From contig CM060733.1 in the NCBI GenBank assembly GCA_030704615.1, positions 39,432,001 through 39,496,000 of the forward strand: a stretch of DNA of 64,000 nt, written 5' to 3'. The notes beneath the pieces were generated by a model. That model had not been told where the DNA came from. It saw only the letters and a program-made list of their open reading frames with translations, and made no database searches. This stretch comes from Takakia lepidozioides (taxonomy: Eukaryota; Plantae; Bryophyta). A program made the translations under genes and the position numbers. Shown here in pieces: positions 19,502 through 63,693 of this stretch (within the stretch, counting starts at the first letter, position 1; each line of letters begins with the position of its first letter).

Positions 19502-20009
19502 TATCAAGAGGGAGGCAACTACGCTAGTAGTAAATACCTTACATAAAAATTCTTGTAATATTTGTTATGCTACCAAAGCAGTTTTTTCACTAACTCCTAC
19601 AATAAAAGCAACGACCACACTGTATTGTATGTAACTATAAAAGTAATTGACGATATAAACTACTCTTAGCCTCTTTAGATCATGGGATGATTGGAGAAAG
19701 CAAATATATTTTGTATATCGTACTATATGTAAAGTATTTAAAAATTATGTGTATGATGTCAGAAGAATTTTTAAATACTTTACATGTAGTACAATATACA
19801 AAATATATTTGCTTTCTCCAATCATCCCATGATCTAAAGAGGCTAAGAGTAGTTTATATCGTCAAATTACTTTTATAGTTACATACAATAGTGTGGTCGT
19901 TGCTTTTATTGTAGGAGTTAGTGAAAAAACTGCTTTGGTAGCATAACAAATATTACAAGAATTTTTATGCAAGGTATTTATTACTAGCGTAGTTGCCTCC
20001 CTCTTGATA
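19502..20009. repeat. Long inverted repeat (foldback): about 245-bp arms, 19-nt loop
   Basis: 19502-19746 is the reverse complement of 19766-20009 with only a few mismatches or indels. Confidence 0.97.
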
Positions 20010-37895: not shown

Positions 37896-38450
37896 GAACT
37901 GACTAGGCCCGGAACTGGAAAAATGGCGCCGAATTTCCAGTTTCGATGCCAGCCACCCCAGGGACTCAGCCATTTTCGGGGCCCTGAACTGGAAATTCGG
38001 CGCCATTTTCCCAGATTGGGGCCAAAAATGGCTAAGTCCCAGAACTGACTGGGCCCCGGAACTGGAAAAATGGCGCCGAATTTCCAGTTTCGGTGCCAGC
38101 CACCCCAGGGACTTAGCCATTTTCGGGGCCCTGAACTGGAAATTCGACGCCATTTTCCCAGATTGGGGCCGAAAATGGCTAAGTCCCAAAACTGACTGGG
38201 CCCGGAACTGGAAAAATGGCGCCGAATTTCCAGTTTCGGTGCCAGCCACCCCAGGGACTTAGCCATTTTTGGGGCCCTGAACTAGAATTCGGCGCCATTT
38301 TCCTAGGTTGGGGCCGAGAATGGCTAAGTCCCAGATCTGCCTGGGCCTGCAACTTGAAAAATGGCGCCGATTTCTAGACCGAGTGCCAGCCACCCCCTGG
38401 ACAGCCATCCCCCAGGGCCCGAATCCAGAAATTCGGCGCCATTTTTCCAA
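37896..38450. repeat. 147-bp tandem array (about 3.7 units), each unit holding two opposed copies of the TGGAAAAAYGGCGCCGAATTTCCA quasi-palindrome
   Basis: Unit starts 37911, 38058, 38204, about 38349; lies within intron 37806-38496. Confidence 0.92.
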
Positions 38451-39041: not shown

Positions 39042-41476
39042 CAGGGGGTAAAAATTCAAGTTTTTGTTTGGCATCAGGTTTCGGCACTACTACAAAGGGA
39101 GTGCCCTTCGTGCTAATGAAGGGGAGGAATTGTCCATAACTTGAGGTAATTCCATGGAAAGACTATGCTATTGATCTGCCAAGAACAAAATATGGCTAAG
39201 TTATGACATGCGCCTTTTTCATCCCTAGGATGAATGATTTTCATCCATGATGTTGAACCCTAGAAGCAAGATGTGAAATTCGAAGGGGAAGAGTGCGTGT
39301 ATCTTTTCGCAGCTGCTGCAGTGGTGTTGGCAGCACAGGATATCTGAGAAAGTTCCACCTACGCAAAGGGTATCAGCTTGCTTTTAAGAGAAATGTTAAG
39401 AGCTCCTGCTTGGCTTTCTGTGCAAGAAGAGTGCGTGTATCTTTTCGCAGCTGCTGCAGTGGTGTTGGCAGCACAGGATATCTGAGAAAGTTCCACCTAC
39501 GCAAAGGGTATCAGCTTGCTTTTAAGAGAAATGTTAAGAGCTCCTGCTTGGCTTTCTGTGCAAGAAGAAGCGGTGCCGCCTTCTTCGTAAGCAATGATCA
39601 AACCAGAGGGATCAGGTTTGTGATAAGGGCGGTGCACCACTGATGTCGCCATTGTCTTGATGAGCACATTAATGAGGAGATGGAGCGGCTCAGCAGGTGT
39701 TGGGGGATGAGAAATGCAGGCTGGTGTGTATAGCGCCTCAGGTTGTCTGTGATCAAATCTTGTAGCTGCTGTCTGTTTTTGAGCTTTAGGACCAGATCAC
39801 TTTGTAAGGGAATCAGCTTGCCTTAAAGAGCGACGTTAAGGGATCTGGCTTGGCATTCTGTGCAAGAGGAAGCGGTGCCGCCTTTCTGGTGTGTATGGCG
39901 CTTAAGCTATCTATAATTAAGTTTTGTATCTGCTCTCTGTCTTAAAGGCTGTAGGACCAGATCACTTCATAGGGAAGAAATGCACATGTAGAAGGATAGG
40001 GTAGAGGTTGGCAGACACAAGGATGTGCCAGCAGCTGAAGCAGAGCCGTCATGCCTTAATGAGGACTGGAATCACGATAAGAAGAGACGTCGGAAATGGC
40101 TGACGAGGGAGAGGACAAGGTGCCTTCGTGACAGGCAGACCCACCGCTTCAATGAGTATAAGACAGATAAGTTTGAAGAGTGGCCTTCTCTTTTTTGGTG
40201 ACTTAGAAATCGCTTTGTGAAGTTTTGGACTATCTCTTGTATGTAGTAAGAGACACTGACATGTGAGGAAGAAAAAGAGCTTTGGAAATGGAATGAAGAC
40301 ACTGGACTTCAAACCAGGATGGACTGGAGATGGATGCACCTGCTGTTACATTGTACAGTAGGAAAAATGAATGGAAACAAGGTTGATTCGTTGCTGGGAC
40401 AGAATGGTTGCTGCTGTTGTATTCTTGTTCCTTTGTTCAGCGTCATGAGCTTGTACAAACAATAGCCTGGGATGTTGACACATTGCAGTCAATGTGGAAA
40501 CTAGCTTAGTAGGTAGAGGAAACCAGTGAGAGTTAGATAGAACTGTTTGGAAACAACAAGAAGGGATGATGTGGATGGGGCAGAAAAACCAACATCTGTT
40601 TGGGTTTGGATCTGATTCTCAGGGTGCTCTCAGCAGCATGTGAACCACTGAGGTTCACAGTTGATGGGAAAAAGAGAGCTGTCAGGGTGTGTAAATTGAG
40701 ACCTGTAGAAGGGTTGAGAGCTGTCTTGGGCAAATGGCTACACCTGGGAAAAGTGGAGTGTGAAGCATTTGTCATTGGCAAGAGAGGGACTGATAAAAGG
40801 GCTGATTATATCTTGTGTGACCAAGGTTGATTTCAATGCTGGGTGCACTGGATGCTTGGCTGAATGCGCATTGCATTGCATCATAGACATGCTACAGTGG
40901 AAAGAGTGAGGAACATACTCACCCTGAAAGAAAGAGAGAGAGAGAGAGAAAAGAGAAAAGGGGAGAGAGCTGACCAGCAAGAGGGGATGGAGAGGAATGG
41001 ATGATTGGGGCGGTAAGATAAAGAAAGCATGAACCCATGAAGGGCCAAACTGGTAGGCCTGCAACTCATGGCAGATCTGAGTTGCCTCCTTCCAAATCGT
41101 GATCTTATTACAAAGGGGATTCCACTTGTTGCTGACCAAGGGAGCTGCCCACAAGGGCAGTGGTCATCACTGACGTAGGGCTGGTTGCATCACTGAAGAC
41201 AGCATGGTAACATGGCTGGTGCAGTGTACCAGGGAGAGGATGTCGTGTAGAAGTAGAACCACGGGTGAAAACAATACAGACTCCCCATCCATGTCTTCTC
41301 TTCCGCTGCGGCGTGGATGAGGATTGTGTGAACTCTGATCATGAAGGACCTGAGGGAAACCCACACCGAGTGACGATGGTTGGATCACCTGAGAGGAGAG
41401 CTCCTTTCCTTCCCTCCAATTGACCTGGGGAGGAGCACAACTAGACTTGCACAGAAGGGGATTCACGCCCTTCTTT
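39042..41476 (+). repeat. 5' LTR (first 13 nt missing; 138-bp internal tandem duplication at about 39289-39565)
   Basis: Aligns with 48080-50435 from CAGGGG onward. Confidence 0.93.
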
Positions 41477-41488
41477 TGGTATCAGAGC
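41477..41488 (+). other. Primer-binding site, tRNA-iMet
   Basis: TGGTATCAGAGC. Confidence 0.95.
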
Positions 41489-41949
41489 CTGAGGATGTTA
41501 AATCTTGATTTCTACTAGCTAGGGATCTTGACTGGTATTGGATGGTTTGATGGCAGGAAGAGACCACACACTGATTCCTGATGAACCAAGCATTGGAGAT
41601 GTGCTGATTTGCTTCAGCAGACGCACACCAAATGCACACGCAGACCCTTGTTTGTACTTCTTCAACCCTGCTTGGAGAATAGCGAATGGTGATTTATGTC
41701 TTAGAGTGATACATACTGGTGGAAGAACAACCATAGCACTTTGGATAAGAGAGTTAGGAAGGTGGGTGAAGATAAATACCATGGCACGAGAGGTGACATG
41801 GGGAGGTAGAGTAGAGATGTTGCGAAATGGACAGTGGGAGTGGTATAGAGGTCAACATTAAGGAAGTTGCGGGAAAAAATAGAGTCAGAATTAGGTGTTG
41901 AAACAGTTTGAACTTTGACTAGAGAATAGAAGGATGACCAGTCCAACCA

Positions 41950-44900
41950 GCATAGATGCGCCTTATCATGGTAGGAATAGTGAGGATGTAAATGACTGGC
42001 TGGAGAGAATTCAGATGGAGGCAGATGTCAGGGATTTGAATGAGGACAAAACTTTCAAGGTAGCAGGCTCAACCTGAGAGCCAAGGCTGATGAATGGTAC
42101 CGTAAACAAAACCCTAGACCAAACAACTGGGTGGACTTCAGGGCAGCAATTTCAGCCAAGTTTGGTATCGTTGACTTGGCAGAAATTAGGCTAAGAATGG
42201 ATACCATTAAACAGGAGAGTAGACAAAGGGTTCAAACATACTTTGATAGGTTGAACCGGTTATTTATAAGAAGTGGGGCGTCTGATTTGGAACAGAGGCG
42301 TAGATTTGCAGCAGGTTTGAGACCAGAAATAGCAAGAGTAATGCTGGGCAGGCGCTTCCTTGATGTAGAGGAAGCACTTGACACAGCCATTGAGATTGAA
42401 AGGGGCCTGGGAAAGTTAGGGGAAATACCTCTAGAGCCATTGGAAGGAGATGATACAGATGAGTCAGTTGTGTTTGTTAACCCTGTGGACAGAAGACTTG
42501 ATCAGCTGAACACTACCCTACAGAAGTACTTTGATAGGGGACCAGTCATAGGAGAAAGCTCGGGATCTAGAACACCTCGTGTTCGCCTTTGTAATGTTTG
42601 TCACAAAGAAGGTCACATAGCTGCATATTGTCCTGAAGGAAGAACCCCAGCTAAGTGTGACAAATGTCACCGGTTCGGGCATTCCACGGAAATGTGTGGT
42701 GTGAGATGCAACTTTTGCAAGCTACTCGGGCATACGGAGAGTGAGTGCAGAAAACTTGACCAAACTATGATGGGAACTCCGGGAACTAACTTTGTAGACG
42801 TGTTCTATGATGATGAGGATGATGTACTCGCAGAGATGACAGATCTGATGTCACGAAATAGTATCAATGAAGTCAGACTTCCAAGGACACGCATACCTGT
42901 CCAGAGTCCGATTGTTGAACCTACAGGGTCACCAGAAAGGAATAGTGAGAGCAGTGAACAGCCAAGCAAGACCAAGAGTGAAATCTACCCAAAGAACAAT
43001 TTCAAGAATGCTATAGAAGGAGGTACGAAATCCAGAATCTTGAACCACTTCTACAAAGGGAGAATATCGTTGTCGCCCATGGACCTGATCATGACTGTGC
43101 CCGGAGAGCTAGACAAATTGAAAGGGCTGGTCAAAGTGGTGGAAAGAGCAATGGTCCAACAAAGGGAGACAACTCACAGTGTAGAAGTTGTGAAGGATGT
43201 ACCAAGGCCTTTGTACTCAGCACACGCTGAGCCCACGATCTCGTATGCTTATACTGGTAAGGTTAAAGCGCTTCATGTAATGATTACAATGGGAGATTAC
43301 CAAGTATTAGGCCAGATTGACAACTGGTGCCATGCTTTCTGTAATATCAGCTAGTACAGTCAGGGATCTTGGTTTGATGATGGGATCTGTCATTACTAGT
43401 AAGGATGTGAATTACAGAGTAGCCTCAGGTGCTCTTGAGACTGCAATGGGCAGACTTGAGGACATCAAGGTCAAGTAGTAGGAGAACTGACCAATCGTTT
43501 GTCCTTTATGGTGGTGAACACGGATACATATCCATGCTGCTGGATTGGACTTTCTCAAAAAGTTTGGCGCTGTAGTGGACACCGAAGCTGAAACAATTCG
43601 CGTACGCTATGGGCCAGGAAAGGATTTTGCTCACTTCCCTTTGCACACCATCAATTATAATGAGCCTGCAGTTACCAAAACAGCCTACCATAGAGGGGTC
43701 GAGAGTAGAATGAGATATGCAAGCAGTACGTCAGCAGGTAATGTCCTAACCCTGACGTCAGATGAACAGTACCTAGGCTTGTGGGAGAAGAAAAGAAAAC
43801 CAGAGGAAGAATATGAGGACACGGAGGAAGCATCCTCAGGTTCTGACACCTCTAAATCTGATAAAGATGAGGAGATGGGAGGCTCTGAGGAGAGTAAGGA
43901 GGTAGAAACAGCACTGAGGGATGTTGAGGAAATAATAGACGATGTCAACCTAGGGGAGGACTTGTTCGAGGACCAAGGGATGTCTGAACTCCTTCAGGAA
44001 GAGACCCATAAGAGCATGGCTGCTGCCATAATACAGGAAGCTTATCAGAAAGCTTGGAATGGTGAACTAGGGAACAACAACCTAGAAATAGAGGATGACT
44101 TCCATGATTGGAATCAGGTTGTCACACAAGAGGAACGACAGAGAATGGCTAACTCTGTAAGCCAGGTGGAGGGAAAGAATTGGGAACCCAGTCAAGAGGA
44201 AGAAATGGAGAGTCGTTGGAGAAGTCTGAAATCCAGACTGCACATCAACCCAGAACTGGCCCCAGAACATAGGATAGAGCTTGAGCAAGAGCTGAAAGCA
44301 AACCAGGAATGCTTTGCTCTTAGCAAGGCTGACTTGGGATGCAGTGAGGTAGAACACACAATTGACACACAAGGTTTTCCCCCTTGCAGAAGTCGTCCCA
44401 GCCGCCTATCAGAATGGGAGGAAGACGAGGTCCAAGGACAAATTGAGACTTTGATCTCACAAGGCAAGATGAGAGAGAGTAGTTCAGAATGGTCGTGTCC
44501 AGTTACCCTTCCACCAAAAAAGGATGGATCCAAGCGGTTTTGTGGTGATTTTAGGCCAGTAAACCGTTTGACCAGAAGGGACTCTTACCCTATGCCATTA
44601 ATTCAGGATGTTTTAAACCAGTTGGGGAAAGCCAAGTGGTTTTCTGCGCTGGATTTACAATCTGGTTTTTGGCAGATCAAAATGGACGACCGAGACATAG
44701 GCAAAAACAGCAGTGATCACAAAGAAGGGATTGTATGAATGGCTAGTCATGCCATTCGGGCTAAAAAATGCCACTGCTACCTTTCAGAGAACAATGATAG
44801 AGTGCTCAAGGAAGAAATCAAAGATTGCGCTAAGGTTTTGTAGATGACGTCAATATCCATAGCAAGGACTGGGGAGATCACGTGGGACATATAAAGAGAG

Positions 44901-47900
44901 TATTGAGCAAGGTTAGAAAGGCCAATCTTAGGCTCAATCCGGACAAGTGTTACTTTGCCAACTTACAGTTGGTATTCCTTGGGCATGTGATCTCTGAAGA
45001 GGGAACGTGGCCTGATCCAGATAAGATAGCTGCTATTGAAAGGTTTCCCTTGCCCAAAAACCACACTGCTCTCAAAAGCTACTTAGGCATGACAGGGTAC
45101 TATAGGCCCTATGTCAAAGGATATGCTGGAGTGGCAGTACCCTTGTTCACTCTAACCAAGAAGGATGTGAAGTTTATCTGGAGTGCAGAGGCACAAAACG
45201 CCTTTTCTGCCTTACAGGTGAAGTTGGTAACTGCTCCCATCCTGGCAAGACCAGATTTCTCAAGACCGTTCGTCTTGGATGTTGACTGGTCCATCAAAGG
45301 AGTAGGGGCAGTCTTGTCACAAAAGGAGTATAAAAAGGAGAGGGTCATTGCATACGCCAGTAAGGTACTATCTGATGCTCAGCGCAAATATCACCCTATG
45401 GAAGGTGAATGCTATGCCCTGGTGTGGGGAAGTATTACACTTTCGGCAGTACCTGTATGGAACCCCTTTTGTAATCAGGACTGATCACAAACCACTGGAG
45501 TGGTTGGCAACGTAAGTGACGCATATGGACGCAGGGGTAGATGGATCATGATGTTACAAGATTTTGAGTTTAAAATTGTTCACAGAGCAGGTGCTAGGCA
45601 TGCTAACGTAGATGCACTAAGCAGGTATCCAGTGGGACCAGCTGAGGAAACCGAGGAAATCGAGGTATACTCTACTTCTCTGTACAGTCAGAAAAGAGAA
45701 GGGAGAAAGAGGGATGGAGCCTATTCTTAAGCTAGCTTGGGATAGGGGTGCCATCAATGCTTCGTTATTTCAATTTAAGGAGGGGAAGGAGGAGTTGAGA
45801 GAAGAAGCTCATAGGCAAGTAGGGTATAGCAGTGAAAAAGGGGAGATGATTTGCAAAAGAGAAGAGTACTATGCATGTGTATGGGGCCTTTGGCACTTCA
45901 AGAAAATACTGTTGGGAAGTCATTTTTTCTTTGGAAACAGATCTAGATCCATATTGGTGGCTATACTCAGAGCACCACATAGGCATAGACTTACTTGGTG
46001 ACTTTTCATTTGAGTTCGTTCCGGGCATAGTAAGATCTTCCACAGATGGAATGTTGACCAAGGATCATGGCATATTGAAGGGAGAACTGAAACCAGGCAT
46101 AATGCCAGATGGAGAAGGAAAGAGGGTGACTTTTGCTGCACAGATTTTTGCTAAAAAAAAAAAAAACAAGGAAAGGGTATTGATCAATCAAGCTCTGTCA
46201 ATCTGGTGAGGGAGGGTATTTGGAAGGATAAGGGTGCAGGAAGGATAGAGGCTACTGCAATCAGCAAACAAGGAAGGGAGCATCTGATGCCTCTTGTCCC
46301 CACATCCATGTGATTACCCGAGGATCTGTGCTCGTGATAAGGAGCTAAGCGAGGTACATCCAGCCTGTGAACTTGTGGAAGAGAGATCGAACAATGAAAA
46401 GGGAAGCTTGCAAGAGACACCATTCCTTCAACACTTGACAAGCACTCCAACAACAAGAAGAACGCGGGTGACTTCCTCATCAGAATGCCCAGCCAAGGAA
46501 AAACATGGGGGGGTGAGTGTTCCACCAAGACGTTTTGTTCTTCAGACAGTGATGGAACAAGTGGTTCAGAACAAGACACTTCTTCTTGCAACAAGATTGA
46601 TGAAGGGGACTGGGTACCATGGACCGCACCCACCAAAGCTACTCAGATGTCATTATTACGTGAGGCTGAAAGATGGGGGAAAAGCTCTCTCATCAGCTCT
46701 GACCATCATACAGCAGCTGTTAAGGAGGAAAAAGCAACCTGATGTGCTTGATGATGTGGAAGTCATGCACCTCTTATGTTTTGGAGAAGTCAATGACTAC
46801 CTGACAAAAGAGGAGAGCAAGAGAGCCAAGAGGCGGGCAAGGCAGTACTCCTATCTCAAAGGTGAGGTCTACTTTGATGGAAGGGTAGTTCCACCAAGAA
46901 CTGACAGAGCGGCAATAATCACTGAAGTACATGAAGCCACTGGCCACTTTGGAGTCAGAAGAACACAAGAGAGATATGCCGACGTTATTTCTGGCATGAT
47001 AGAACAAAACTCATCAGGCAAGTACTCAAGGGCTGTGGTAAATGTCAGATGGCCAAACAGAACGGAGTGTTGCGCTCAGGTAGCTCAAAACTTCACAGCA
47101 TTCCAGTAGTGGATCTGTTTTTTCAGAGTTGCAATTGACACGGCAGGACCATTACCTATAACCAGCAGGGGCAATCAGTACTTTCTGGTGGCAATCGATC
47201 ACTTCTCAAAATGGATAGAAGCTGCACCAGTGGCAGATCATACAGCAGCCCTTGCTGCCCGCTTTCTTGAGGAAGAAGTAATTGACAGGTATAGCTGCCC
47301 ACATACGTTGCTCACTGACAATGGCACAGAGTGGGGGAGTTTGAAGATACATGCCACGAATACGGTATAAAGAGGGAGCATAGCGCCCCCTACTGGCCTC
47401 AGTGTAACGGTATGGTGGAAAGGGTCATTAAGTCTCTCAAACAGAGCATCACCACCCTAGGAGTTGGAAACGACACTGAGTGGGATCAGAATCTCTATAA
47501 GGCCCTGTTTGGTTACAGAATGGGTGTCCATGCTTCCACTGGATTCTCACCTTTTCAGGTACTTACTGGTAGGATTCCCAGGCTGGGAATTGACAACAGG
47601 TTACATTTTCTTACAACACCAGTAAATTCTGATGGATCTGTAGCAGAGGTCACACTTATGATGCAGCAGAAAATCCAGCTTCTCACAGAGATGAAGGCAA
47701 AGCTACGAAAGAGTGTGAAGAAAGGGCAGCGTCAACAGGCAAGAGATTATGAAAGAAGGCATCAAACAGGGCATACCTACTGCACGTTGATGGAGAACAG
47801 CAAGGTAATGATGTTGAGGCCTGGAAAGAGGTCTTCCATGACATCTCCATGGGAGGGACCCTATGACTTTTTGGGATACAAGGATGCAGGAAGCACAACC

Positions 47901-48044
47901 AAGACTGGAGAAGCTGCACGAAGATGCAGGTTGAGAGATGGAGCAGACAAGGAATGGGTAAGAAGTAGGAGGGATTTAAAACCCTTCATACCACCAATAG
48001 GTGTTCAGCCGTTAAAGGTGGTCAGTGAGGACCCTGACACTTAA
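41950..48044 (+). pseudogene. gag-pol (Gag-PR-RT-RH-INT) of the 11.4-kb Gypsy, frameshifted
   Basis: ORFs 42131..43354, 43545..44738, 44882..45484, 45500..45730, 46294..47109, 47188..47370 and 47331..48044 carry consecutive domain motifs; no chromodomain. Confidence 0.93.
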
Positions 48045-48055
48045 AAAAAAGGAGG
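48043..48055 (+). other. Polypurine tract
   Basis: AAAAAAAAGGAGG overlapping the pol stop codon. Confidence 0.85.
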
Positions 48056-48075
48056 CACACTACATATGTAGTGTG
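48056..48075. repeat. Perfect 20-bp palindrome CACACTACATATGTAGTGTG (att-att junction-like)
   Basis: Self-reverse-complementary; its halves equal the two termini of the 3' LTR. Confidence 0.97.
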
Positions 48076-50445
48076 AGTGCAGGGGTAAAAATTCAAGTTT
48101 TTGTTTGGCATCAGGTTTCGGCACTACTACAAAGGGAGTGCCCTTCTGCTAATGAAGGGGAGGAATTGTCCATAACTTGAGGTAATTCCATGGAAAGACT
48201 ATGCTATTGATCTGCCAAGAACAAAATATGGCTAAGTTATGACATGCGCCTTTTTCATCCCTAGGATGAATGATTTTCATCCATGATGTTGAACCTAGAA
48301 GCAGGATGTGAAATTCGAAGGGGAAGAGTGCGTGTATCTTTTCGCAGCTGCTGCAGTGGTGTTGGCAGCACAGGATATCTGAGAAAGTTCCACCTACGCA
48401 AAGGGTATCAGCTTGCTTTTAAGAGAAATGTTAAGAAAGAAGAAAATATCTGAAAGTTCCACCTACGCAAAGGGTATCAACTTGCTTTTAAGAGAAATGT
48501 TAAGAGCTCCTGCTGGCTGTCTGTGCAAGAAGAAGCGGTGACGCCTTCTTAAGCAATGATCAAACCAGAGGGATCAGGTTTGTGATAAGGGCGGTGCACC
48601 ACTGCTGTCGCCATTGTCTTGATGAGCACATTAATGAGGAGATGGAGCGGCTCAGCAGGTGTGGGGGATGAGAAATGCAGGCTGGTGTGTATAGCGCCTC
48701 AGGTTGTCTGTGATCAAATCTGTAGCTGCTGTCTGTTTTTGAGCTTTAGGACCAGATCACTTGGTAAGGGAATCAGCTTGCCTTAAAGAGCGACGTTAAG
48801 GGCTGGCTGGCCTTCTGTGCAAGAGGAAGCGGGTGCCGCCTTCTGGTGTGTATGGCGCTTTAAGCTATCTATAATTAAGTTTTGTATCTGCCCTCTCTGT
48901 CTTAAAGGCTGTAGGACCAGATCACTTCATAGGGAAGAATGCACATGTAGAAGGAATAGAGGTAGAGGTTGGCAGACACAAGGATGTGCCAGCAGCTGAA
49001 GCAGAGCCGTCATGCCTAATGAGGACTGGAACACGATAAGAAGAGACGTCGGAAATGGCTGACGAGGGAGAGGACAAGGTGCCTCGTGACAGGCAAGAAC
49101 CCACCGCTTCAATGGATAAGACAGATAAGTTTGAAGAGTGGCCTTCTCTTTTTTGGTGACTTAGAAATCGCTTTGTGAAGTTTGGACTGTCTCTTGTATG
49201 TAGTAAGAGACACTGACATGTGAGGAAGAAAAAGAGCTTTGGAAATGGAATGAAGACACTGGACTTCAAACCAGGATGGACTGGAGATGGATGCACCTGC
49301 TGTACATTGTACAGTAGGAAAAATGAATGGAAACAAGGTTGATTCGTTGCTGGGACAAGAATGGTTGCTGCGTGTATTCTTGTTCCTTGTTTCAGCGTCA
49401 TGAGCTTGTACAAACAATCTAGCCTGGGATGTTGACACATTGCAGTCAATGTGGAACTAGCTTAGTAGGTAGAGGAAACCAGTGTGAGAGTTAGATAGAA
49501 CTGTTTGGAAAACAACAAGAGGGATGATGTGGATGGGGCAGAAAAACCAACATCTGTTTGGGTTTGGATCTGATTCTCAGGGTTGCTCTCAGCATGTGAA
49601 CCACTGAGGTTCACAGTTGATGGGAAAAGAGAGCTGTCAGGGTGTGTAAATTGAGACCTGTAGAAGGGTTGAGAGCTGTCTTGGGCAAAATGGCTACACC
49701 TGGGAAAAGTGGAGTGTGTGAAGCATTTGTCATTGGCAAGGAGGGACTGATAAAAGGGCTGATTATATCTTGTGTGACCAGGTTGATTTCAATGCTGGGT
49801 GCACTGGATGCTTGGCTGAATGCGCATTGCATTGCATCATAGACATGCTACAGTGGAAAGAGTGAGGAACATACTCACCCTGAAAGAAGAAAGAGAGAGG
49901 GAGAGAGAAAAGGACATAAGGGAGAGAGCTGACCAGCAAGAGGGGATGGAGAGAATGGATGATTGGGGCGGGTAAGATAAAGAAAGCATGAAACCATGAA
50001 GGCCAAACTGGTAGGCCTGCAACTCATGGCAGATCTGAGTTCCTCCTTCAAATCGTGATCTTATTACAAAGGGGATTCCACTTGTTGCTGACCAAGGGAG
50101 CTGCCCACAAGGGCAGTGGTCATCACTGACGTAGGGCTGGTTGCATCACTGAAGACAGCATGGTAACATGGCTGGTGCAGTGTACCAGGGAGAGGATGTC
50201 GTGTGTAGAAGTAGAACCACGGGTGAAAACAATACAGACTCCCCATCCATGTCTTCTCTTCCGCTGCGGCGTGGATGAGGATTGTGTGAACTCTGATCAT
50301 GAAGGACCTGAGGGGAAACCCACACCGAGTGACGATGCGTTGATCACCTGAGAGGAGAGCTCCTTTCCTTCCCTCAATTGACCTGGGGAGGAGCACAACT
50401 AGACTTGCACAGAAGGGGATTCACGCCCTTTCTTTTCACACTACA
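48067..50445 (+). repeat. 3' LTR with 10-bp terminal inverted repeats TGTAGTGTGA...TCACACTACA
   Basis: Termini read directly; homologous to the 5' LTR. Confidence 0.93.
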
Positions 50446-51151
50446 CCCTTGGCCTCCTCACTACCTCTTGCCTCCTCGCTAGCCTTATGTCTAGCCTGTT
50501 CCTTTGCCCTCTCTTTTGCCCTCTCACAGGCCTTCTATTTCTTACTAGTGTATTGCGTCTGCTTGGCTTTCTTCTTCTTCTTCGCGTGGGCGGGCCCTAC
50601 TGCATGTGCATCAGCTTCCTCCATTGTTGGATTTGCTGTCCTCATCCGACGCCCTTCACCTGCCATGCCGCCTGCACCAACCTCCCGAATGCCTATTCTG
50701 TCGTACTCTCGCTGCAGGTCCTCCCGTCCACCAACAAAAGGCGAAAGATTTAGTTTGCCCTCCCGCCCCAAGTTGGGCGATCCAAACATGCGATGAATAG
50801 CGGCTTTTGGAGTGACTGCTCGAGCAGTTGGAGCTGTCGATGATACCACCAGCGTGTCGGGCTCGTCGTCACTCTGTCATCCCCAACAATCGTGAGAACC
50901 AACATCGCAATGAAAACCACCATCGCAACCACCATCGCAACAATCGTGGAACAACAATGAAAACAAACCCAAGCAATGCCTAAGAATCACATGCAGAAGC
51001 AGCCTTCTCCAGAGCTGCCGGCTTTGCACACGCATTGCAAACTATCTAAGGTTCACTCAACCAGTAACTTGCAGAAATGAACATGAAACATGATGAACAA
51101 ATGAACACTATTTCGATAAGACGGAAAATAGGGTGAAATGTTTTGAAGGCA

Positions 51152-52315: not shown

Positions 52316-52445
52316 TAGCGGATGAGAATGGTGGGAATAACGTGCCAAAAGTGGCCTGCAAGGAAAAAACTCCAAGTTTAGTGTGTAACCAACAAAAAAA
52401 ACGCGAAAAACTTGATGGAACGACTAAAAATTGTTGGTGAAGGGC

Positions 52446-55400
52446 ATCGAATCCTTTTGACAGCGGCATAGCAGTCATAAAATCCATCGAGACACTTTCC
52501 CAAGACCCCTCTGGAATCGGCAAGGGTTATAACAGCCCCGCTTGCTTTTTGTACTCGCTCTCTGGTTTTGTTGGCATGTGGGTGCATGTCTTGACATACT
52601 CCTCGGCCTCCTCCCTCAGTTTGGGCCAGAAATACTCTTTCTTCAAGAGTGTCGCGGTGCGCTTGGCTCCGCCGTGGTCCGCAAGTGGGCCATCGTGGCA
52701 TTATCTCAAGAGACTATCTCTGATCCATCCATTCGGCACGTAGAGACGTTTTTGCTTATACCGGAGCAGTCCATTTTGCAAGTGGAACTACGATTTAACC
52801 CCCATCCTCAAGTCCCGCATCACGGACTTCGCCATCTCATCATTTCGGTAAGCCTTCCGGATCTTCTCGCCCCTGTACACCAACATAAGTTGTTGCTTTC
52901 TACTTAAAGCATCGGCCACCACATTGTCTCGTCCCGGTTTGTACTGGATATCCACGTCGAAGACGCCAAAGTATCTTGCCACCTAAGTTGTTTTGGGGAT
53001 AACTTAGGTTACGTGGCAAAATACTTCACCGTGACATTGTCCGTGAACACCTTCACCGGGTTGGAACCAATATAGTGGCGCCAAAGCTCAAGGCAATGCA
53101 CCACCGCCTTCATTTACTTCTCATGCATAGGCCACCGTCGCTCTATTTCATTCAGTTTCTTACTTTCGTAAATCACTGGACATCCATCCTGCATGAGTAC
53201 ACCCCCTATAGCGAAGTCCGACGCATCCGTATGAATCTCAAATGGACGGTCGAACTCCGGGATTTTGAGGACTGGAGCTTCCGCCATCCGCTGCTTCAAC
53301 TCGGCAAAAGCTTGACCACAAAAGGTGTTCCATACCCAGACTTTGGATTTACACAGAAGGTCTGACAACGGCCCCGCGATCTTGGCAAAATTTCTCACAT
53401 ACTTCCGGTAATAGGAGGCGAGTCCTAGGAAAGATCGCACTCCTGGGACCGAAGTCGGAGGCTCCCAGTCCAAGATCGCCCTCACCTTTCTGTCATCCAT
53501 TTTGATCCGATCCTGTGTAATCACATGCCCCAGGAACTCCACTTTTGTGACCCCGAATTCGCACTTTGAGCTTTGGCATACAGCTTCCCTTCCCGCAATT
53601 TCTGGAACACCCTTTTGAGGTGCTCCAGGTGCTCCTCATTTGTTTTCGAGTATACCAAGATGTCGTCGATGTACACGATCACAAAGTCATCTAGCCACTC
53701 CTGGAAAAGGCTGTTCATCAGCGTGCTAAAGGTCGCGGGTGCGTTGGTGAGTCCAAAAGGCATCATCAAGAACTCATACGAACCATATCTTGTCCTGCAC
53801 GCGGTTTTCTCCTCATCTCCTTCCGCCACTCGGATTTGATGGTAGCCAGAGTGCAAATCAATCCGGCTGAAATACTTCGCTCCTACCAACCGATCAAAGA
53901 GGTCGTCGATTCTTGGCAAAGGGTACCGGTTCTTGATAGTCACCTTATTCAGAGCCCTGTAGTCGACACACATCCGCAACGTCCCATCCTTCTTGTCTGC
54001 GAATAGCACCGGGGCTCCGTAAGGTGACTTACTCGGCCGGATGTACCCCTTTGACATTAGATCCTTGAGCTGAGTCTTCAGCTCGACCAACTCTCTGTGG
54101 CTCAACCGGTAGGGCGCTTTGGCAGGCGGCTCTGATCCCGGTATCACCTCAATCTTGTGGTCAACTCCCCTTCGCGGTGACAAGCCACTTGGTAAATCCT
54201 CCGGCATCACATCCCAGTATTTCTCCAAGATCCCCTTGATCCAATCTGGGCTCGGCTCCCCATCGCCTTCTCCCTTCACTTGTCTTACATAGAGCAAAAA
54301 CAGGGGCTCGTGTGACTCCTCCACAGCCCACTCCCTTGCTGACAGAAGGTTTATTCACCCTCCCACGGGGTTGGGCGTTTCCGACACTCGTAAAACTTTG
54401 CCACCATTCCCACACGGTAGCGTGACTACTCTCTTGCGGCCATCTATGACCGCTCCGGATCTGCTCAAAAGGTCATCCCCAAAATGAGATCCACTCCATC
54501 TATCTCGCAAATGGTGAAGTTCTCACGTCCCTCCCAACTCCCGAGTTGAAGAGGAAACATCGAACGCCAACCTCGTCGCCAATTGTGGTTCTCCTTTAGC
54601 AGAACGCACCTCAATAGAGGCCCCCACATCACTTGTCGGGAGTCCCGGCTTCCGTGCCGTTGCCGGTGTCATGAAGGAGTGCGACGCTCCTGTGTCCACC
54701 AACAACGACACGTTAGTTCCGGAGATTATCCCACTCACAAACATTAAGTGACTCCCTTTATGCAAGGCGCCAGTTTCCTGATACAACTCACAAGAGTAGT
54801 TGCCTACCTTGCAAGTCTTGGTGACCACCGCCTCCATCAAGCGGCTAATGGAAGCTTCGGACAACTCCGTGGTTGCCGAGTCATGTTCAATTGTCGGGGA
54901 TTCGTACACTTCTTGGCCAGGTGCCCGGGCTCCCCACAATTGAAGCACACTCCATCGAAGGTCGCCTTTTGTCCGCCATAAGGCGTCGCACCTGATTTTC
55001 CTTTCGGAGCACTAGGTGTCGTCTTGGCGTGTGAAGGCCCTCCCTTCGATTTCCACGTGCCATTGTCGCCGCGTGGCCTATCCCACTTCTTTTCCGATCG
55101 AAAGGAGTCACCCTCCCGCCGGGTCTTCTTGTGGTTCAGCTCTACGGCCTTGTCTTTCGCCCCTAGGGACATCCGAGAAAAATTCAGCCCTCTCAATTGC
55201 CTCGTTCAAAGTCTTAGGTGGCTTCTCCTCCAACTTACGTCTGGCCTATGGGGCCAGTCCCGCCACAAAGTTGAAGACCATTTTTGGTTCTGCCATGTCC
55301 GTGACTTCGAGCAACAGCACATTGAAAGCCTGAACATATCCCCGAATGTCATCCGTTTGCTTCAGATTCCTCATCTTGTCCCGGGCGAGCCAGGACGCGT

Positions 55401-56729
55401 TGAGGGGCACAAACTGTCTCTTCATCAGTTCCTTGAACCCACTCCAGTTTAAGGTTTCCGGGTTTGGACCTCGGTTGTGAAGGCCTTTCTGCCACCATTG
55501 TTGAGCATAGCCCCTCAAATAGGTGGGAGCCACTTCCACCCGATCCTCGTCACTCAACTTGGCCGCCCGGAAGTATTGCTCTAGCTCCAAGAGCCAGGTG
55601 TTGAGTGCCTTCCGATTTCGGACGCCCTCGAAGGTGCCGGGTTCCTTAGGCTTCACCTTAAACTTTGCCTTAGTGGAAGTGGCATTAGCCGCCTTCAACA
55701 CGTCTTTCAACGTCCCGCCAAACTGCACCAACAACCCTTCCCAAAAGGCTGCTGGCATAGGAGGCATCTGTTGGTCTGTCGGAGCTCTCAGGGATTCCTT
55801 GGGCTCCGACTCCTCAGATTCATCCCGTTCTTGAGAGGCCTCGTTTTCAAAAGCTTGCTTCCTCAAATGGTCACTTCGGTGACAAGTCGCCCCCATCGGG
55901 CTCACCAAGATCATCATCTTTCGGGCCGTACCGCTTTCGCTTTGGCTTGCCCGACTCCATGATGAGGCCGATCCCAAGGACGATCCCGTACTGAACTCTA
56001 AGCTCTGATACCAAGTGTCGCGCACCTCACTGCGGTAAGCTCCCCTTCAAGTCATAGTTACTCGCTTTGATACGCACGCCTAACTCCCAACCTGGCCGCC
56101 GGGCCAACTCGGAGCTTCGGCTGCTCACCAGGAGATAACGGTCCCCCTTTACTCTTCCAAGAAACCCTCTACCAATTTGGGCCTAATACAAATTCCCTTT
56201 GGTAGATGGCAGTCCGGAATAGCTCCCTATTCCTTGGTCGCTTTCCGGCTCGCTCACTTACTCACTAGTTTTTTGTCACCAACGGGCTTGCACCGTTCTC
56301 GGGGTTACTACTCCCCTATATATACTTCTGTGACTGTCCGCGGGGGTTTCACAAACAACCATGCCTTTTTATGGCAAACCACCACGAAGACCCTCGATTC
56401 CCGTTGATGAGTCGCGGTGAGTCTTGGCCCACCCACCACGGCCCCATTGGACCGTGGTGAGTCCCACGACTCCCACCACAAGGTCTCCGCCCCATGGTGA
56501 GTCCTATGCCACCCCCACTAAGTCCCACTAAGCTACCACCACCCCTTGTGGAGCCCCCCCCACCGCAACCCGGGTGTGGGCTCCACCTAGTGAGTGCCTC
56601 CGCCTCCTTGAGTGCCTTGGGCACTCAAGGGTGCTTCAGCCCCCCGTACCTATTGTTGCCACCGCCCCCACCACAGGGGCAGCCCCTCTGCGTCCCGACC
56701 CCCTGCCCTCAAGGCAAAGGGCCGCGACA
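52446..56729 (-). mobile_element. 3'-truncated Galadriel-like chromovirus (LTR 56016-56729, PBS 56002-56013, degenerate gag-pol ending inside the integrase)
   Basis: Highly similar reverse complement of 58320-62640; LTR TGTCGC...GCGACA; stops at SKGFDA. Confidence 0.95.
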
Positions 56730-56845
56730 AAAAACGTGGCCCGCAGGCGAAAAACTCTAGTTTAGTGTCTGATTAGATTAAAAAACGCGAAAAACTTGAT
56801 GCAACGACTGAAAATTGTTAATGAAGGGTCGATACGGGCGTCTGT

Positions 56846-57727
56846 GGATGGATATTCGGCGCCGTTTTTCCATCCTACAGATGATCTCTGTCGACCTCTC
56901 CCCCCAAGACGACTTCGTCCGTGCGGCCTTGGACGGAAATTCGGCGATGTTTTTCCATCCGGGGGATATTCTCTGTCGGCCAGATGTCGGCCTCTCCCCC
57001 CGAGACAACTTCATCCGGCCGGCCTCGGATGGAAACTCAGCGCCGAATTTCCATCCGGGGGATGTTCTCTGTTGGCCAGGTGTCGACCTCTCCCCCCGAG
57101 ACGACTTCGTCCGAACAGCCTCGGATGGAAATTCGGCGCCGTTTTTCCATCCGGGGGATGATCTCTGTCGGCCAGGTGTCGGCCTCTCCCCCCGAGACGA
57201 CTTCGTCCGGCCGGCCTCGGATGGAAATTCGGCGCCGTTTTTCCATCCTGGGGATGTTGTCTGTCGGGCAGGTGTCAGCCTCTCCCCCCGAGACGACTTC
57301 ATCCGTGCGGTCTCGGATGGAAATTCAGCGCCGTTTTTCCATCCGGGGGATGTTCTCTATCGGCCAGGGGTCGGCCTCTCCCCCCGAGACGACTTCATCC
57401 GTGCGGCCTGGGATGGAAATTCGGTGCCATTTTTCCATCCGGGGGATGTTCTCTGTCGGCCAGGTGTCGGCCTCTCCCCCCGAGACGACTTCATCCGTGC
57501 ACCCTCGGATGGAATTCGGCGCCGTTTTTCCATCCGGGGGATGTTCTCTATCGGCCAGGTGTCGGCCTCTCCCCCCGAGACGACTTCATCCGTACGCCCT
57601 CAGATGGAAATTCGGCGTCGTTTTTCTATCCGGGGGATGTTCTTTGTCGGCCAGGTGATGGACTCATCCCCTGATACGACTTCGTCCGACCAGCCTTGGA
57701 TGCAAATTCGGCGCCGTTTTTCCATCC
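56846..57727. repeat. Array B: 96-bp tandem repeat with 10 copies of the same quasi-palindrome, opposite in orientation to array A
   Basis: Copies at 56846, 56931, 57027, 57123, 57219, 57315, 57411, 57507, 57602, 57698; 32-aa periodicity in the ORF track. Confidence 0.95.
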
Positions 57728-57964
57728 GGGGGATCTTCTCTGGCAGGCACGTGGGGCCGTCACCCTCCGATTGGACGTCCCTGGGTATGGTTATATTAAA
57801 TGGTGCTCTTTTCCTTTGCCACTTGCCCGACCTTCGCTCGTGACCCACGCGTTTCAAACCGAGATAGCAACAACACTTCCTCGCTCCGAGCTCCTCATCT
57901 TCCCCACACTCCCCCTTCCCTGTGCACCCTCTCTGCTTCCTGGCAGCCCTTTCAATAGTCCTCG

Positions 57965-58319: not shown

Positions 58320-61300
58320 TGTCGCGGCCCTTTGCCTTGAGGGCAGGGGGTCGGGACACATGAGGGGCTGCCCCTGTGGTGGGGGCAGCGGCAGCGATAG
58401 GTATGGGGGGCTGAAGCACCCTTGAGTGCCCAAGGCACTCAAGGAGGCGGAGGCGCTCACTAGGTGGAGCCCCGCACACCGGGTTGCGGTGGAGGTGGCT
58501 CCACAAGGGGTGGTGGTAGCTTAGTGGGACTTAGTGGGGGTGGCATAGGACTCACCATGGGGTGGAGACCTCGAGGTAGGAGTCGTGGGGAGTCTTGGGA
58601 CTCATCACGGTCCATTGGGGCCGCGGTGAGTGGGCCAAGACTCACCGCGACTCACCACCGGGAGTCGAGGGTTTTCGTGGTGGTTCGCCATAAAATGGCA
58701 TGGCTGGTTATGAAACCCCCGCGGACAGCTACAGAAGTATATATAGGGAGTAGTAACCCCGAGAACGGTGCAAGCCCGTTGGTGACCAAAAACTAGTGAG
58801 TAAGCGAGCGAGCCGGAAAGCGACCAAAGAGTGGGGAGCTGTTCCGGACTGCCATCTACCAAAGGGAATTCTCCTAGTCCCAAATAGGTGGAGGGTTTAG
58901 AGGGAAGCGGAAGGGGACCGTTATGTCCCGGTGAGCAGCCGAAACTCCAAGTTGGCCCGGCGGCCAGGTTGGGAGTCAGGCGCGCGCATCAAAGCGAGTA
59001 ACTATGACTTGAAGGGGAGTTTACCGAACTGAGGTGTGCGACACTTGGTATCAGAGCTTAGAGTTCAGTACGCGATCGTCCTTGGGATTGGCCTCATCAT
59101 GGGGTCGGGCAAGCCGAAGCAAAAGCGGAACGGCCCAAAAGATGATGATCCCGGTGAGCCCGATGGGGGCGACGTGTCACCGAGGCGGCCGTTTGAGGAA
59201 GCGATTAATGTTTCCGAAAACGAAGCCGCTCAGGAGCGGGAGGAATCCGAGGAGTCGGAGCCCGAGGAATCTTTGAGAGCTCCGACAAACCAAGAGATGC
59301 CTCCCATGCCGGCAGCCTTTTGGGAAGGGTTGTTGGCGCAGTTTGGCGGGACGTTGAAAGACGTGTTGAAGGCGGCTAATGCCACTTCCACCAAGGCAAA
59401 GTTTAAGGTGAAGCCTAAGGAACCCGGCACCTTCGAGGGCGTTCGAAACCGGAAGGCACTCAACACCTGGCTCCTGGAGCTAGAGCAGTACTTCCGGGCG
59501 GCCAAGTTGAGTGACGAGGATCGGGTGGAAGTGGCTCCCACCTATTTGAGGGGCTATGCTCAACAATGGTGGCAGAAACGCCTTCACGACCGAGGCCCAA
59601 GCCCGGAAACCTTGAACTGGAGTGAGTTCAAGGAATTGATGAAGAGACAGTTTGTGCCCCTCAACGCGTCCTGGCTTGCCCGGGACAAGATGAGGAATTT
59701 GAAGCAAACAGATGACATTCGGGGGTATGTCCAGGCTTTCAATGTGCTGTTGCTCGAAGTCGCGGACATGGCAGAACCAGAAATGGTCTTCAACTTTGTG
59801 GCGGGACTGGCCCCATGGGCTAGGCGGAAGTTGGAGGAGAAGCCACCCAAGACTTTGAACGAGGCAATTGAGAGAGCTGAATGTTTCTCGGATGTCCCTA
59901 AGGGTGAGAGACAAGGCCGTACGGAGCTGAACCACAAGAAGACCCGGCGGGAAGGTGACTCCTCCCGACCGGAAAAGAAGTGGGATAGGCCACGCGGCAA
60001 AAATGGCACGTGGAAATCGAAGGGAGGTCCTTCACACGTCAAGGCGGCACCCGGTGCTTCGAAAGGAAAAGCGGGTGGAGCGACTTATGGCGGACAGAAG
60101 GCGACCTTTGATGGAGTGTGTTTCAATTGCGGGGAGCCCGGGCACATGGCCAAGAAGTGCACGAAGCCCCGGCAATTGAACATGACTCGGGCGACCACGG
60201 AGCTGTCGGAAGATACCATCAGTCGCTTGGTGGAAGCGGTGGTCGCCAGGACTTGCAAGGTAGGCAAATTTTCTTGTGAGTTGTATCAGGAAACTGGCGC
60301 CTTACGAAAAGGGAGTCAGTTATTGTTCGTGGATGGGATAATATCCGGAACTAATGTGTCGTTGTTGGTGGACACAGGAGCGTCGCACTCCTTCATGACG
60401 CCGGCGGCGGCGCGAAAGTTGGGACTCCCGACAAGTGACGTGGGGGCCTCTATTGAGGTGCGCTCTGCCAAAGGAGAACCTCAGTTGGCGACAAGGTTGG
60501 CGTTTGATGTTCCTCTTCAACTGGGGAGTTGGGAGGGACGTGAGAACTTCACTATCTGCGAGATCGATGGAGTGGATCTCATTTTGGGAATGACCTTTTT
60601 GAGCAAATCCGGAGCGGTCATAGATGGCCGCAAGAGAGTAGTCACGCTGCCATGTGGGAATGGTGGCGAGGTTTTACGAGTGTCGGAAACGCCCAAATCC
60701 GTGGGAGGGCGAATAAACCTTCTATCAGCAAAGGAGTGGGCCGTGGAGGAGACACACGAGTCCCAGTTTTTGCTTTACATTAGAGAAGTGAAAGGAGAAG
60801 GCGATGGGGAGCCGAGCCCAGATTGGATCAAGGGGATTTTGGAGAAATACCAGGATGTGATGCCGGAGGATTTACCAAGCGGCTTGCCACCGCGAAGAGG
60901 AGTTGACCACAAAATTGAGGTGATACCGGGATCGGAACCGCCTGCCAAGGCGCCCTACCGGTTGAGCCACAAAGAGTTGGTCGAGCTGAAGACTCAGCTC
61001 AAAGATCTAATGTCAAAGGGGTACATCCGGCCGAGTAAGTCACCTTACGGAGCCCCGGTGCTATTTGCAGACAAGAAGGATGGGACGCTGCGGATGTGTG
61101 TCGATTACAGGGCTCTGAATAAGGTGACTATCAAAAACCGGTACCCTTTGCCAAGGATCGACGACCTCTTCGATCGGTTGGCAGGAGCGAAGTATTTCAG
61201 CCGGATCGACTTGCGCTCCGGCTATCACCAAATTCGGGTGGCGGAAGGAGATGAGGAGAAGACCGCGTGCAGGACAAGGTATGGTTCATATGAGTTCTTG

Positions 61301-63693
61301 GTGATGCCTTTTGGGCTCACCAATGCACCAGCGACATTTAGCACGCTGATGAACAGCCTTTTCCAGGAGTGGTTGGATGACTTTGTGATCGTGTACATCG
61401 ACGACATCTTGGTGTACTCGAAAACAAAGGAGGAGCACCTGGAGCACCTCAAAAGGGTGTTCCAAAAATTGCGAGAAGGGAAGCTGTATGCCAAAGCTTC
61501 AAAGTGCGAATTCGGGGTCACAAAAGTGGAGTTCTTGGGGCACGTGATTACACAGGATGGGATCAAAATGGATGACAGAAAGGTGAGGGCGATCTTGGAC
61601 TGGGAGCCTCCGACTTCGGTCCCGGGAGTGCGATCCTTCCTAGGACTCGCCTCCTATTACCGGAAGTATGTGAGAAATTTCGCCAAGATCGCGGGGCCGC
61701 TGTCGGACCTTCTGTGTAAATCCAAAGTCTGGGTATGGAACACATTTTGTGGCCAAGCTTTTGCTGAATTGAAGCAACGGATGACGGAAGCTCCAGTCTT
61801 AAAAATCCCGGAGTTCGATCGTCCGTTTGAGATTCATACAGATGCATCGGACTTCGCAATTGGGGGTGTACTTATGCAAGATGGACGTCCAGTGGCTTAC
61901 GAAAGTAAGAAACTGAATGAAGTGGAGCGACGGTGGCCGACGCACGAAAAAGAGATGAAGGCGGTGGTACATTGCCTTGAACTCTGGCGCCACTATGTTG
62001 GTTCCAACCCAGTGAAGGTGTTCACGGACAATGTCACGGTGAAGTATTTTGCCACGCAGCCCAAGTTGTCCCCAAAACAACTTAGGTGGCAAGATACTTT
62101 GGCAGTGTTCGACGTGGATATCCAGTACAAACCGGGACGGGACAATGTGGTGGCCGATGCTTTAAGTAGAAAGCAGCAGCTCTTGTTGGTGTACAAGGGC
62201 GAGACGGCGCTCCAAAGGAAGATCCGGAAGGCTTGCCGGAAGGATGAGCTGGCAAAGTGTGATGCAGAACTTGAGAATGGGGGTTAAATCGCAGTTCCAC
62301 TTGCAAAACGGACTGCTCCGGTATAAGCAAAAACGTCTCTATGTGCCAAAGGGAGGGATCAGGGATAGTCTCTTGAGAGAATGCCATGATAGCCCGCTTG
62401 CGGGCCACGGTGGAGCCAAGCGCACTGCGGCACTCTTGAAGAAAGAGTATTTCTGGCCCAAACTGAGGGAGGAGGCAGAGGAGTATGTAAAGACATGCAC
62501 CACATGCCAACAAAACCGGAGCGAGTATAAAAAGCAAGCGGGGCTGTTACAACCCTTGCCGATTCCAGAGGGGACTTGGGAAAGCGTCTCGATGGATTTC
62601 ATGACTGCTATGCCGCTGTCAAAAGGATTCGATGCAATCATGGTGGTGGTAGATAGGTTCAGTAAAATGGCCCATTTCATCCCCACCAAGGAGACGGCAA
62701 CTGCGCAGGAGACAGGGCGACTTTACTTCGCCCACGTCTTAAAGCATCATGGAGTCCCGAAGGATATTGTCTCGGACCGCGACCCAAAGTTTACGAGTAA
62801 ATTCTGGAGAGCACTTTGGAAGAAGATGGGGACGAGGCTGAAGATGAGCACCGCCTTCCGACCTACGACGGACGGCCAAACGGAAAGAGTGAATTTCGTA
62901 GTGAAGCAATTCTTGCGGAATTACGTGTCGGCAGACCAATCAGACTGGATGGAACACTTAGACGCGGCAGAGTTCTGTTATAATAACACAGAACACTCCG
63001 CGACGGGAGTTTCCCCTTTTGTGTTGGTCTATGGAAAAGCACCTCTGGTGCCGACAAGTTGGGCCGCCCAGGACGTTGAGGAACCGGCAGTAGCGGCGGT
63101 ACTGGAAGAACGCGAGCGTTTGTTGAAGCTCGCAAAGTACAACATTGCCAAAGCTAGGAAACGGTATGAAAGGCAGGCGAATCGGAAGCGGAGGGAAGTG
63201 AAGTTTGAGGCAGGCACAGAGGTCTGGTTGAACATCAAGAATTTTCGACTACCTCCGGAAATGAGTCCGAAGTTCGTACCTCCGTATGCGGGTCCCTTTC
63301 GCATTCGGAGGGTTATGAATGAGGATGTGTATGAATTGGAGCTGCCAGCAAACAGCAAGGTGCACCCAGTATTCCATGTCTCCCTTTTGAAGCCTTACTT
63401 CAAAGATGAAGCACGTCCGAATCGGCAGCAAGTGTTGCGTCCGCCACCTATGCTGTTGGATCATGAAAATGAACCCGAGTACGAGGTGGAGGCAATACTT
63501 AAGTCGAGGAGGTTCAAGAACCGAGAAACAGAGTATCTCGTCAAATGGAAGGGCTATCATCTTGTGGAGGCATCTTGGGTGCGTGCCTCAGAAATGGGAA
63601 ACGCATCCGAGGCAGTTGCAGCGTTCGAAGGGCGACCTCAAAAGCGAAAGAAGCGTTGATGGGGACATCAACCTTGGAGCGTGGGGGAGGAAA
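58320..63693 (+). mobile_element. Galadriel-like chromovirus Ty3/Gypsy element (5' LTR 58320-59043, PBS 59046-59057, gag-pol, PPT about 63683-63693)
   Basis: LTR TGTCGC...GCGACA; TGGTATCAGAGC; GGGGGAGGAAA downstream of the pol stop. Confidence 0.95.
59099..63659 (+). CDS. Gag-Pol polyprotein (Gag, CCHC, PR, RT, RNase H, INT, chromodomain) with one frameshift near 62265
   Basis: [81 protein letters not shown]. The single frameshift may be a sequencing error. Confidence 0.95.

Follow-up and report, generated by a model that had tools for sequence, protein, structure and literature searches.

How can a retrotransposon end, on its right side, in bases that are missing from the place where its reverse transcription begins? 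The question is raised by an 11.4-kb long terminal repeat (LTR) retrotransposon of the Ty3/gypsy type in the moss Takakia lepidozioides. It lies in a 64,000-nucleotide stretch (assembly GCA_030704615.1, contig CM060733.1, positions 39,432,001 to 39,496,000, forward strand) that we call the window and in whose coordinates positions are given. The attachment (att) sites of this element are permuted, and a survey of its relatives shows that the layout is real and lineage-wide in a Ty3/gypsy clade.

Permuted att sites in the window and in related elements

We named the LTR body segment A and the right att tip segment B (CACACTACA, 9 nt in the window). With the primer binding site (PBS) and the polypurine tract (PPT), the element as a whole reads A-PBS-gag-pol-PPT-B-TA-A-T-B. 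The 5′ LTR terminates in CGCCCTTCTTT at 41476, and the PBS TGGTATCAGAGC, which we take to be of the initiator tRNA-Met type, starts at 41477; CA is absent from this junction. Directly after the PPT stands a perfect 20-bp palindrome, CACACTACA-TA-TGTAGTGTG, at 48056-48075. No other perfect palindrome in the window is as long, an (AT)n run excepted, and at a single specified centre 10 palindromic pairs would arise by chance with a probability of about 1e-6. The right terminus reads TTCTTTT-CACACTACA, with its last base at 50445. All this agrees with an earlier, sequence-only reading of the locus, which had stated that the 5′ LTR meets the PBS without CA (41476/41477), that the PPT at 48043-48055 is followed by a perfect palindrome (48056-48075), and that the right end carries nine nucleotides missing upstream of the PBS (50437-50445). 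It had also noted the loss of the left 13 nt and of the target-site duplication (TSD) in this copy; the LTR match indeed starts at 39042, and no displaced left tip was found by a fuzzy search of the window. The LTR pair differs by 15 mismatches per 2330 aligned columns and by 59 gap events, which indicates a young copy in an assembly that is noisy for indels.

To examine other copies of the layout, we used 82 loci of relatives with 55-63% identity in reverse transcriptase (RT) and RNase H (80 kept of at least 525 confirmed). The PBS junction and the right end were tested on these loci. Of 39 PBS junction matches, one lies in an unrelated element within L029 and was excluded, which leaves 38 for the lineage. 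At 38 of 38 the PBS adjoins a pyrimidine tail without B, so that the tip was never seen between the 5′ LTR and the PBS, where the earlier reading had proposed to look for counterexamples. Among the loci extending at least 350 nt past the integrase, 53 of 57 show PPT-GG(T/C)(T/G/C)ACA-TA-TG. We read the other four as probable deletions: L026 is without B, and L034 and the near-identical L074/L077 are without the whole junction. In L026 (6200-6240) the PPT is followed by TA-TG with no B between them, and from such a copy, we predict, no right att could form.

Both ends were present at 17 loci, corresponding to 15 independent insertions with the form TSD-TG...T-tip-TSD. The 4-bp TSD outside B is perfect in 13 of the 15 and has one mismatch in the other two. 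When the right boundary was shifted 2-10 nt inward, a range that includes the A/B joint, the TSD match fell to 0/15, and cross-pairs matched in 9 of 210 cases. Since the TSD matches at the B boundary and not at the inward offsets, B lies inside the element. The relatives thus show all four junctions that had been predicted from the window: a left end of TSD-TG, a PBS with no tip ahead of it, an internal PPT-palindrome and a right end of tip-TSD. None of the refuting conditions named in advance was encountered. A solo LTR of the lineage in L068 (about 8750-9870) reads TSD-TG...tail-B-TSD and looks canonical, as A x A recombination would give. In L011 a 3′ LTR followed by a PBS was considered as a single-LTR form and rejected as a collapsed assembly (123-bp end overlap); L066 was not counted, being probably a collapse of the same kind.

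For the window's own family, public contigs from 4 of 11 listed runs (at most three samples) were aligned to 47900-50700; they showed the PPT-palindrome junction only, and the best-matching run may be the window's own source. A G>A change at 48055 occurs in 2, 11, 5 and 5 contigs of the four runs, 26-31 letters from where the contigs stop. A single diverged contig covers 47903-48085. Together these contigs place the PPT-palindrome junction in other copies of the family, a result that is borderline by the 31-letter bridging rule. The right flank of the element (50446-50700) is a higher-copy repeat, and a loose end in run X2 may show its unbroken upstream sequence.

Origin of the right tip

Retroviral minus-strand synthesis begins at the PBS, and the 5′ LTR/PBS junction and the right end are copied from one and the same stretch. 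With a single template for the two, B must be added by a later step. After removal of the near-identical L019, L048 and L058, the right B equals the post-PPT B at three variable bases in 27 of 27 deduplicated right ends. The post-PPT copy can be told from the left end, taken as its reverse complement, in 19 cases; the right tip equals the former in 19/19 and the latter in 0/19, which rejects copying from the left end. A TG variant with a matching right end occurs in two separate starred clades, and the window's own, unrelated 9-nt B likewise equals its right end; the independent contrasts for this tracking therefore number three (the two TG-variant clades and the window), not 19. This covariation points to the left overhang of the complementary DNA (cDNA) as the source of B. 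The tail of the LTR's U5 region, which resembles the reverse complement of the PPT, was also considered as a template for B; its orientation excludes it, by reasoning, and it is better regarded as subterminal att sequence.

The joint between A and B carries a further mark. The terminal A of a tRNA primer can be retained, and the sequence-only reading had connected an extra T at the joint with it. In the window itself this T is weak evidence because of the indel noise noted above. In the relatives the T number at the joint is heterogeneous: 5 of 13 LTR pairs have one extra T there and no pair has one fewer, compared with 1 among 111 other A/T runs of the same pairs (Fisher p 3e-5). This count omits L028 and L062, which have rearranged 5′ LTRs; L062 has the extra T too. 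The extra T and its heterogeneous number indicate a joining step.

From these comparisons we consider it highly probable that the cDNA ends must be joined before integration. Our preferred account of how this happens, held with distinctly more reserve, is that they would be ligated into a 2-LTR circle, an obligatory precursor that integrase would cut at CA-TA-TG. The linear cDNA would run B-TA-A...PPT-B-TA-A(T), with the last T probably derived from the retained 3′ A of the tRNA. Host end-joining would close it into the circle and create tail-T-B-TA-TG. Integrase would then nick after CA on both strands (CA^TA^TG), giving two CA-3′ ends with 5′-TA overhangs, and would insert both ends with a 4-bp stagger. 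The proposed nick geometry is the one reported for foamy virus integrase, which in vitro cleaves a circle junction whose CA and TG are 2 nt apart, leaving 5′-AT overhangs (PMC1180852). The palindrome on the PPT side would be spared, as it is without the subterminal A bases common to the left att and the joined right att. At att positions 10 and 12, A is common to left and right att in 24/27 and 19/27 cases, and the PPT-side copy has A there in 3/27 and 0/27; these shared bases would let integrase ignore the internal copy.

Several points weigh against integration through a circle. Neither a circle nor a joined junction nor a cDNA end was observed: viral contigs searched for the exact pattern of the joined junction gave 0 matches, and the junction was absent from the right-end-like motifs of the 82 loci. 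The sequence-only reading had further predicted single-LTR insertions ending PPT-tip-TSD and permuted LTR-LTR-internal copies, and here it failed, as neither form occurs at any of the 53 PPT-tip sites, every one of which has TA-TG or a one-base variant. The circle model is saved only if the PPT-side palindrome is spared, and the absence of single-LTR insertions would be explained by subterminal bases that are missing from the PPT-side copy and are restored at the joint. With canonical elements, 2-LTR circles are seldom seen (HMS-Beagle: 1 of 73 circle reads; 10.1101/2022.09.25.509424), and linear DNA is described as the established retroviral precursor (PMC11054761). The joints are very clean, which fits a jump by RT as well as host end-joining, and B in the relatives starts with GGT, as the PBS does, so that a microhomology join is possible there; this does not apply to the window's family. 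The relatives' loci come from short-read metagenome contigs, in some of which repeats have collapsed (L011, L012, L081), and because their families are related, the counts are not independent events. The original circle-integration claim is supported, with the qualifications that the single-LTR and permuted insertions did not turn up and that the covalent circle is the inferred part, since an end-to-end jump by RT gives an identical junction.

This jump is the main rival of the circle reading. Having completed the plus strand, RT would cross from the right end to the left, where it would meet the minus strand's 3′ end and copy B-TA-A; a nicked, circle-like junction would form inside the particle and be cut by integrase at the same site. 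Such a route needs no host ligase and predicts the same layout and covariation. It also fits clean joints with 0 or +1 T and the GGT common to B and PBS in the relatives, and retroviral RTs are reported to clamp 2-nt overlaps and to use non-templated additions in strand transfer (PMC3035444). However, the window's B has no bases in common with the PBS, the reported clamp requires C or G in the overlap (PMC3035444), and the +1 T copies misfit any fixed microhomology. We regard the jump as possible but rather unlikely.

Head-to-tail concatemers, in which two cDNA molecules are joined and integrase releases unit lengths, would yield an identical junction sequence as well. They are improbable, because two joints are required per insertion and no integrated tandem with an uncut joint was found among the 82 loci. 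Slightly poorer still are the prospects of read-through, in which a transcript running past the 3′ LTR and primed elsewhere than at the PBS would inherit the tip from the parent's right end, the palindrome being the left overhang only. This would avoid a joining step, and the relatives' right end does resemble the PBS start (TGGT); yet the 12-nt PBS is kept in 38 junctions and in the window, and both the 27/27 tracking of the internal B by the right tip and the +1 T bias would be left unexplained. Panhandle repair, in which the left terminal inverted repeat would serve as template for the tip once the plus strand's 3′ tail has folded back onto it, draws on left subterminal sequence that mirrors the right tail in some families (L018), but is contradicted by the 19 informative cases, in none of which the right tip follows the left end, and we give it very little credence. 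A private rearrangement or misassembly of a single ordinary element, for which the indel-rich window copy without its left end could speak, is contradicted by the same layout with a different tip sequence across the sister clade and by the PPT palindrome in other contigs of the window's family, and can practically be dismissed.

Classification and sequence context

By its domain order (gag, RT, RNase H, then DDE integrase; Table 1), the window element is a Ty3/gypsy retrotransposon. It has a PBS after the 5′ LTR and a PPT before the 3′ LTR, and a TSD is shown in the relatives only; two co-terminal LTRs, each ending in att CA, are not found, and this is the variant feature. A search with the RT/RNase H frame returned 42 proteins at 57-63% identity, after which full-coverage matches fall to at most 47%. 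A 48-row tree unites the window element with 13 sampled members on a single 100/100 branch, apart from the window's chromovirus. The integrase of the lineage has D-34-E spacing in 22/22 motif-matching locus frames and 4/4 proteins, and the spacing is 35 in 75 of 87 other matches. The closest proteins outside the lineage (P0126-P0129) bear a PHD finger, and the three that were checked also have D-34-E integrase spacing. Two side features concern the element itself: a 138-bp tandem duplication inside the 5′ LTR (39288-39568), of which the 3′ LTR has a shorter version, and an RNase H-integrase interval of about 1 kb (45700-46740) that exceeds the relatives' length and is weakly similar to them.

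Table 1. Parts of the window element, in window coordinates
Feature	Position	Strand	Remarks
5′ LTR body (segment A)	39042..41476	+	first 13 nt gone; pyrimidine tail, no terminal CA
Primer binding site TGGTATCAGAGC	41477..41488	+	directly abuts LTR; identical 12-mer at 38 lineage junctions
gag region	42044..43354	+	Retrotrans_gag; zinc-knuckle-like stretch by eye
RT and RNase H	43518..45667	+	frameshifted in assembly
Integrase	46741..47726	+	zinc-binding domain and DDE core; DTAG, TDNG and GMVER motifs over two frames
Polypurine tract	48043..48055	+	ends GGAGG; relatives share ending
Internal copy of right att tip (B, CACACTACA)	48056..48064	+	counterpart in 53/57 relatives
Central TA, CA/TG on either side	48065..48066	+	predicted shared 2-nt overhang
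3′ LTR body (segment A)	48067..50435	+	begins TGTAGTGTG
Joint T, A/B boundary	50436..50436	+	T number differs among relatives
Right att tip (B)	50437..50445	+	not found before PBS; in relatives, 4-bp TSD outside it

With canonical Ty3/gypsy elements (Metaviridae) the lineage shares the gag-RT-RNase H-integrase order, PBS, PPT, DDE integrase, TG/CA termini and a short TSD; unlike in these, its LTRs are not co-terminal: ahead of the PBS there is no B, which is kept behind the PPT instead. Assignment to the chromoviruses was rejected, as the last open reading frame (ORF), where a chromodomain would lie, gave no Pfam match and the branch is separate (100/100). Phygy and Selgy are described as non-chromoviruses, the former with a tRNA-Trp PBS and NCGN targets, the latter with a tRNA-Ala PBS and a length of about 5 kb (PMC6317226). 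Compared by these described features, the lineage resembles the two REXdb groups in its 4-bp TSD and in that no chromodomain was detected. It differs from Phygy in its Met-type PBS and in its targets (NCGN in 0 of 27 right flanks), and from Selgy in PBS type and in length, at 7.5-8.7 kb in the relatives and 11.4 kb in the window; both assignments were rejected on these grounds. Among the protein matches there were no named reference sequences against which Phygy, Selgy, Athila or Tat could be placed in a tree. DIRS, PAT and Ngaro were rejected because a DDE integrase is present and the five ORFs scanned gave no tyrosine recombinase match.

As an outgroup control, we took 36 loci with long flanks, chosen from 78, with 34-48% identity to the sister-group query. 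A repeat pair was present in 21 of the 36; by eye, 16 of these 21 have CA 1-6 nt before TGG, five are ambiguous and none is permuted. Several outgroup elements carry PPT-TA-TG and TGTAAC/GTTACA termini; on this basis the PPT-side palindrome may, speculatively, stem from a circle junction captured behind the PPT. Canonical CA-CT-PBS junctions are also seen within the window, in two chromovirus-type Ty3/gypsy copies (52444-56729 and 58320-62635), which are 91% identical and inverted around a tandem array (56845-57770). The lineage was not found in a search of prokaryote genome contigs, nor the sister group in one of viral contigs. Many prokaryote genome bins (L083-L160) hold eukaryote-type Ty3/gypsy elements, likely from host contamination.

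Other repeats of the window comprise tandem repeats of about 146 bp (37896-38449), which show inverted symmetry internally and have short motifs in common with the array at 56845-57770, an imperfect palindrome of about 510 bp with 95% identical arms (19502-20009) that resembles a miniature inverted-repeat transposable element or a foldback element, and diverged fragments resembling long interspersed nuclear elements, with endonuclease and zf-RVT matches (1632-3909 and 5850-10169).

Known circle systems and significance

No description of the permuted layout was found in the literature searched, with subscription journals and Repbase outside its scope; the element-level table of REXdb might include members of the lineage. 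Integration by way of joined and re-cut ends has long been regarded as a dead end for such elements. For retroviruses, the model of a 2-LTR circle was dropped in the late 1980s (PMC11054761), and in the reports on HIV-1 (PMC4372172) and foamy virus (PMC1180852) integrase, the use of circles appears only as a side route. As in those reports, the junction considered here is a palindromic LTR-LTR junction that would be cut after CA on both strands, and as in foamy virus just 2 nt separate CA and TG. The difference is that in those viruses the circle is optional and the LTRs are co-terminal, whereas the layout described here would make end-joining obligatory.

Two other groups of elements offer likenesses. 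The split repeats of PAT and Ngaro and the circle-junction region of DIRS-1, for which a circular intermediate has been proposed (PMC7192593), have the same A...B-A-B topology with an internal junction copy. Those elements are described as using a tyrosine recombinase, in contrast to the DDE integrase, tRNA PBS, PPT and TSD of the present lineage, in which B measures only 7-9 nt. Copy-out/paste-in insertion sequences of the IS3, IS30 and IS256 types are alike in predicted chemistry, with a DDE enzyme that nicks the abutted-end junction of a double-stranded circle, which is then integrated with a TSD (PMC7780238). These are bacterial DNA transposons whose transposase forms the junction from donor DNA, whereas here the substrate is reverse-transcribed.

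Annotation tools built on co-terminal LTRs are likely to place the ends of this lineage wrongly. If integration through a circle is true, the lineage would do among retroelements what copy-out/paste-in insertion sequences do among bacterial DNA transposons, and it would realize in nature the circle-junction model of 1984, which was given up for retroviruses. With a successful lineage in which the right att cannot exist before the ends are joined, the circle question becomes directly testable: the internal B of 7-9 bases, if marked, predicts the right end of each new insertion. The integrase of this lineage could be a natural model for the cutting and insertion of circular donors.

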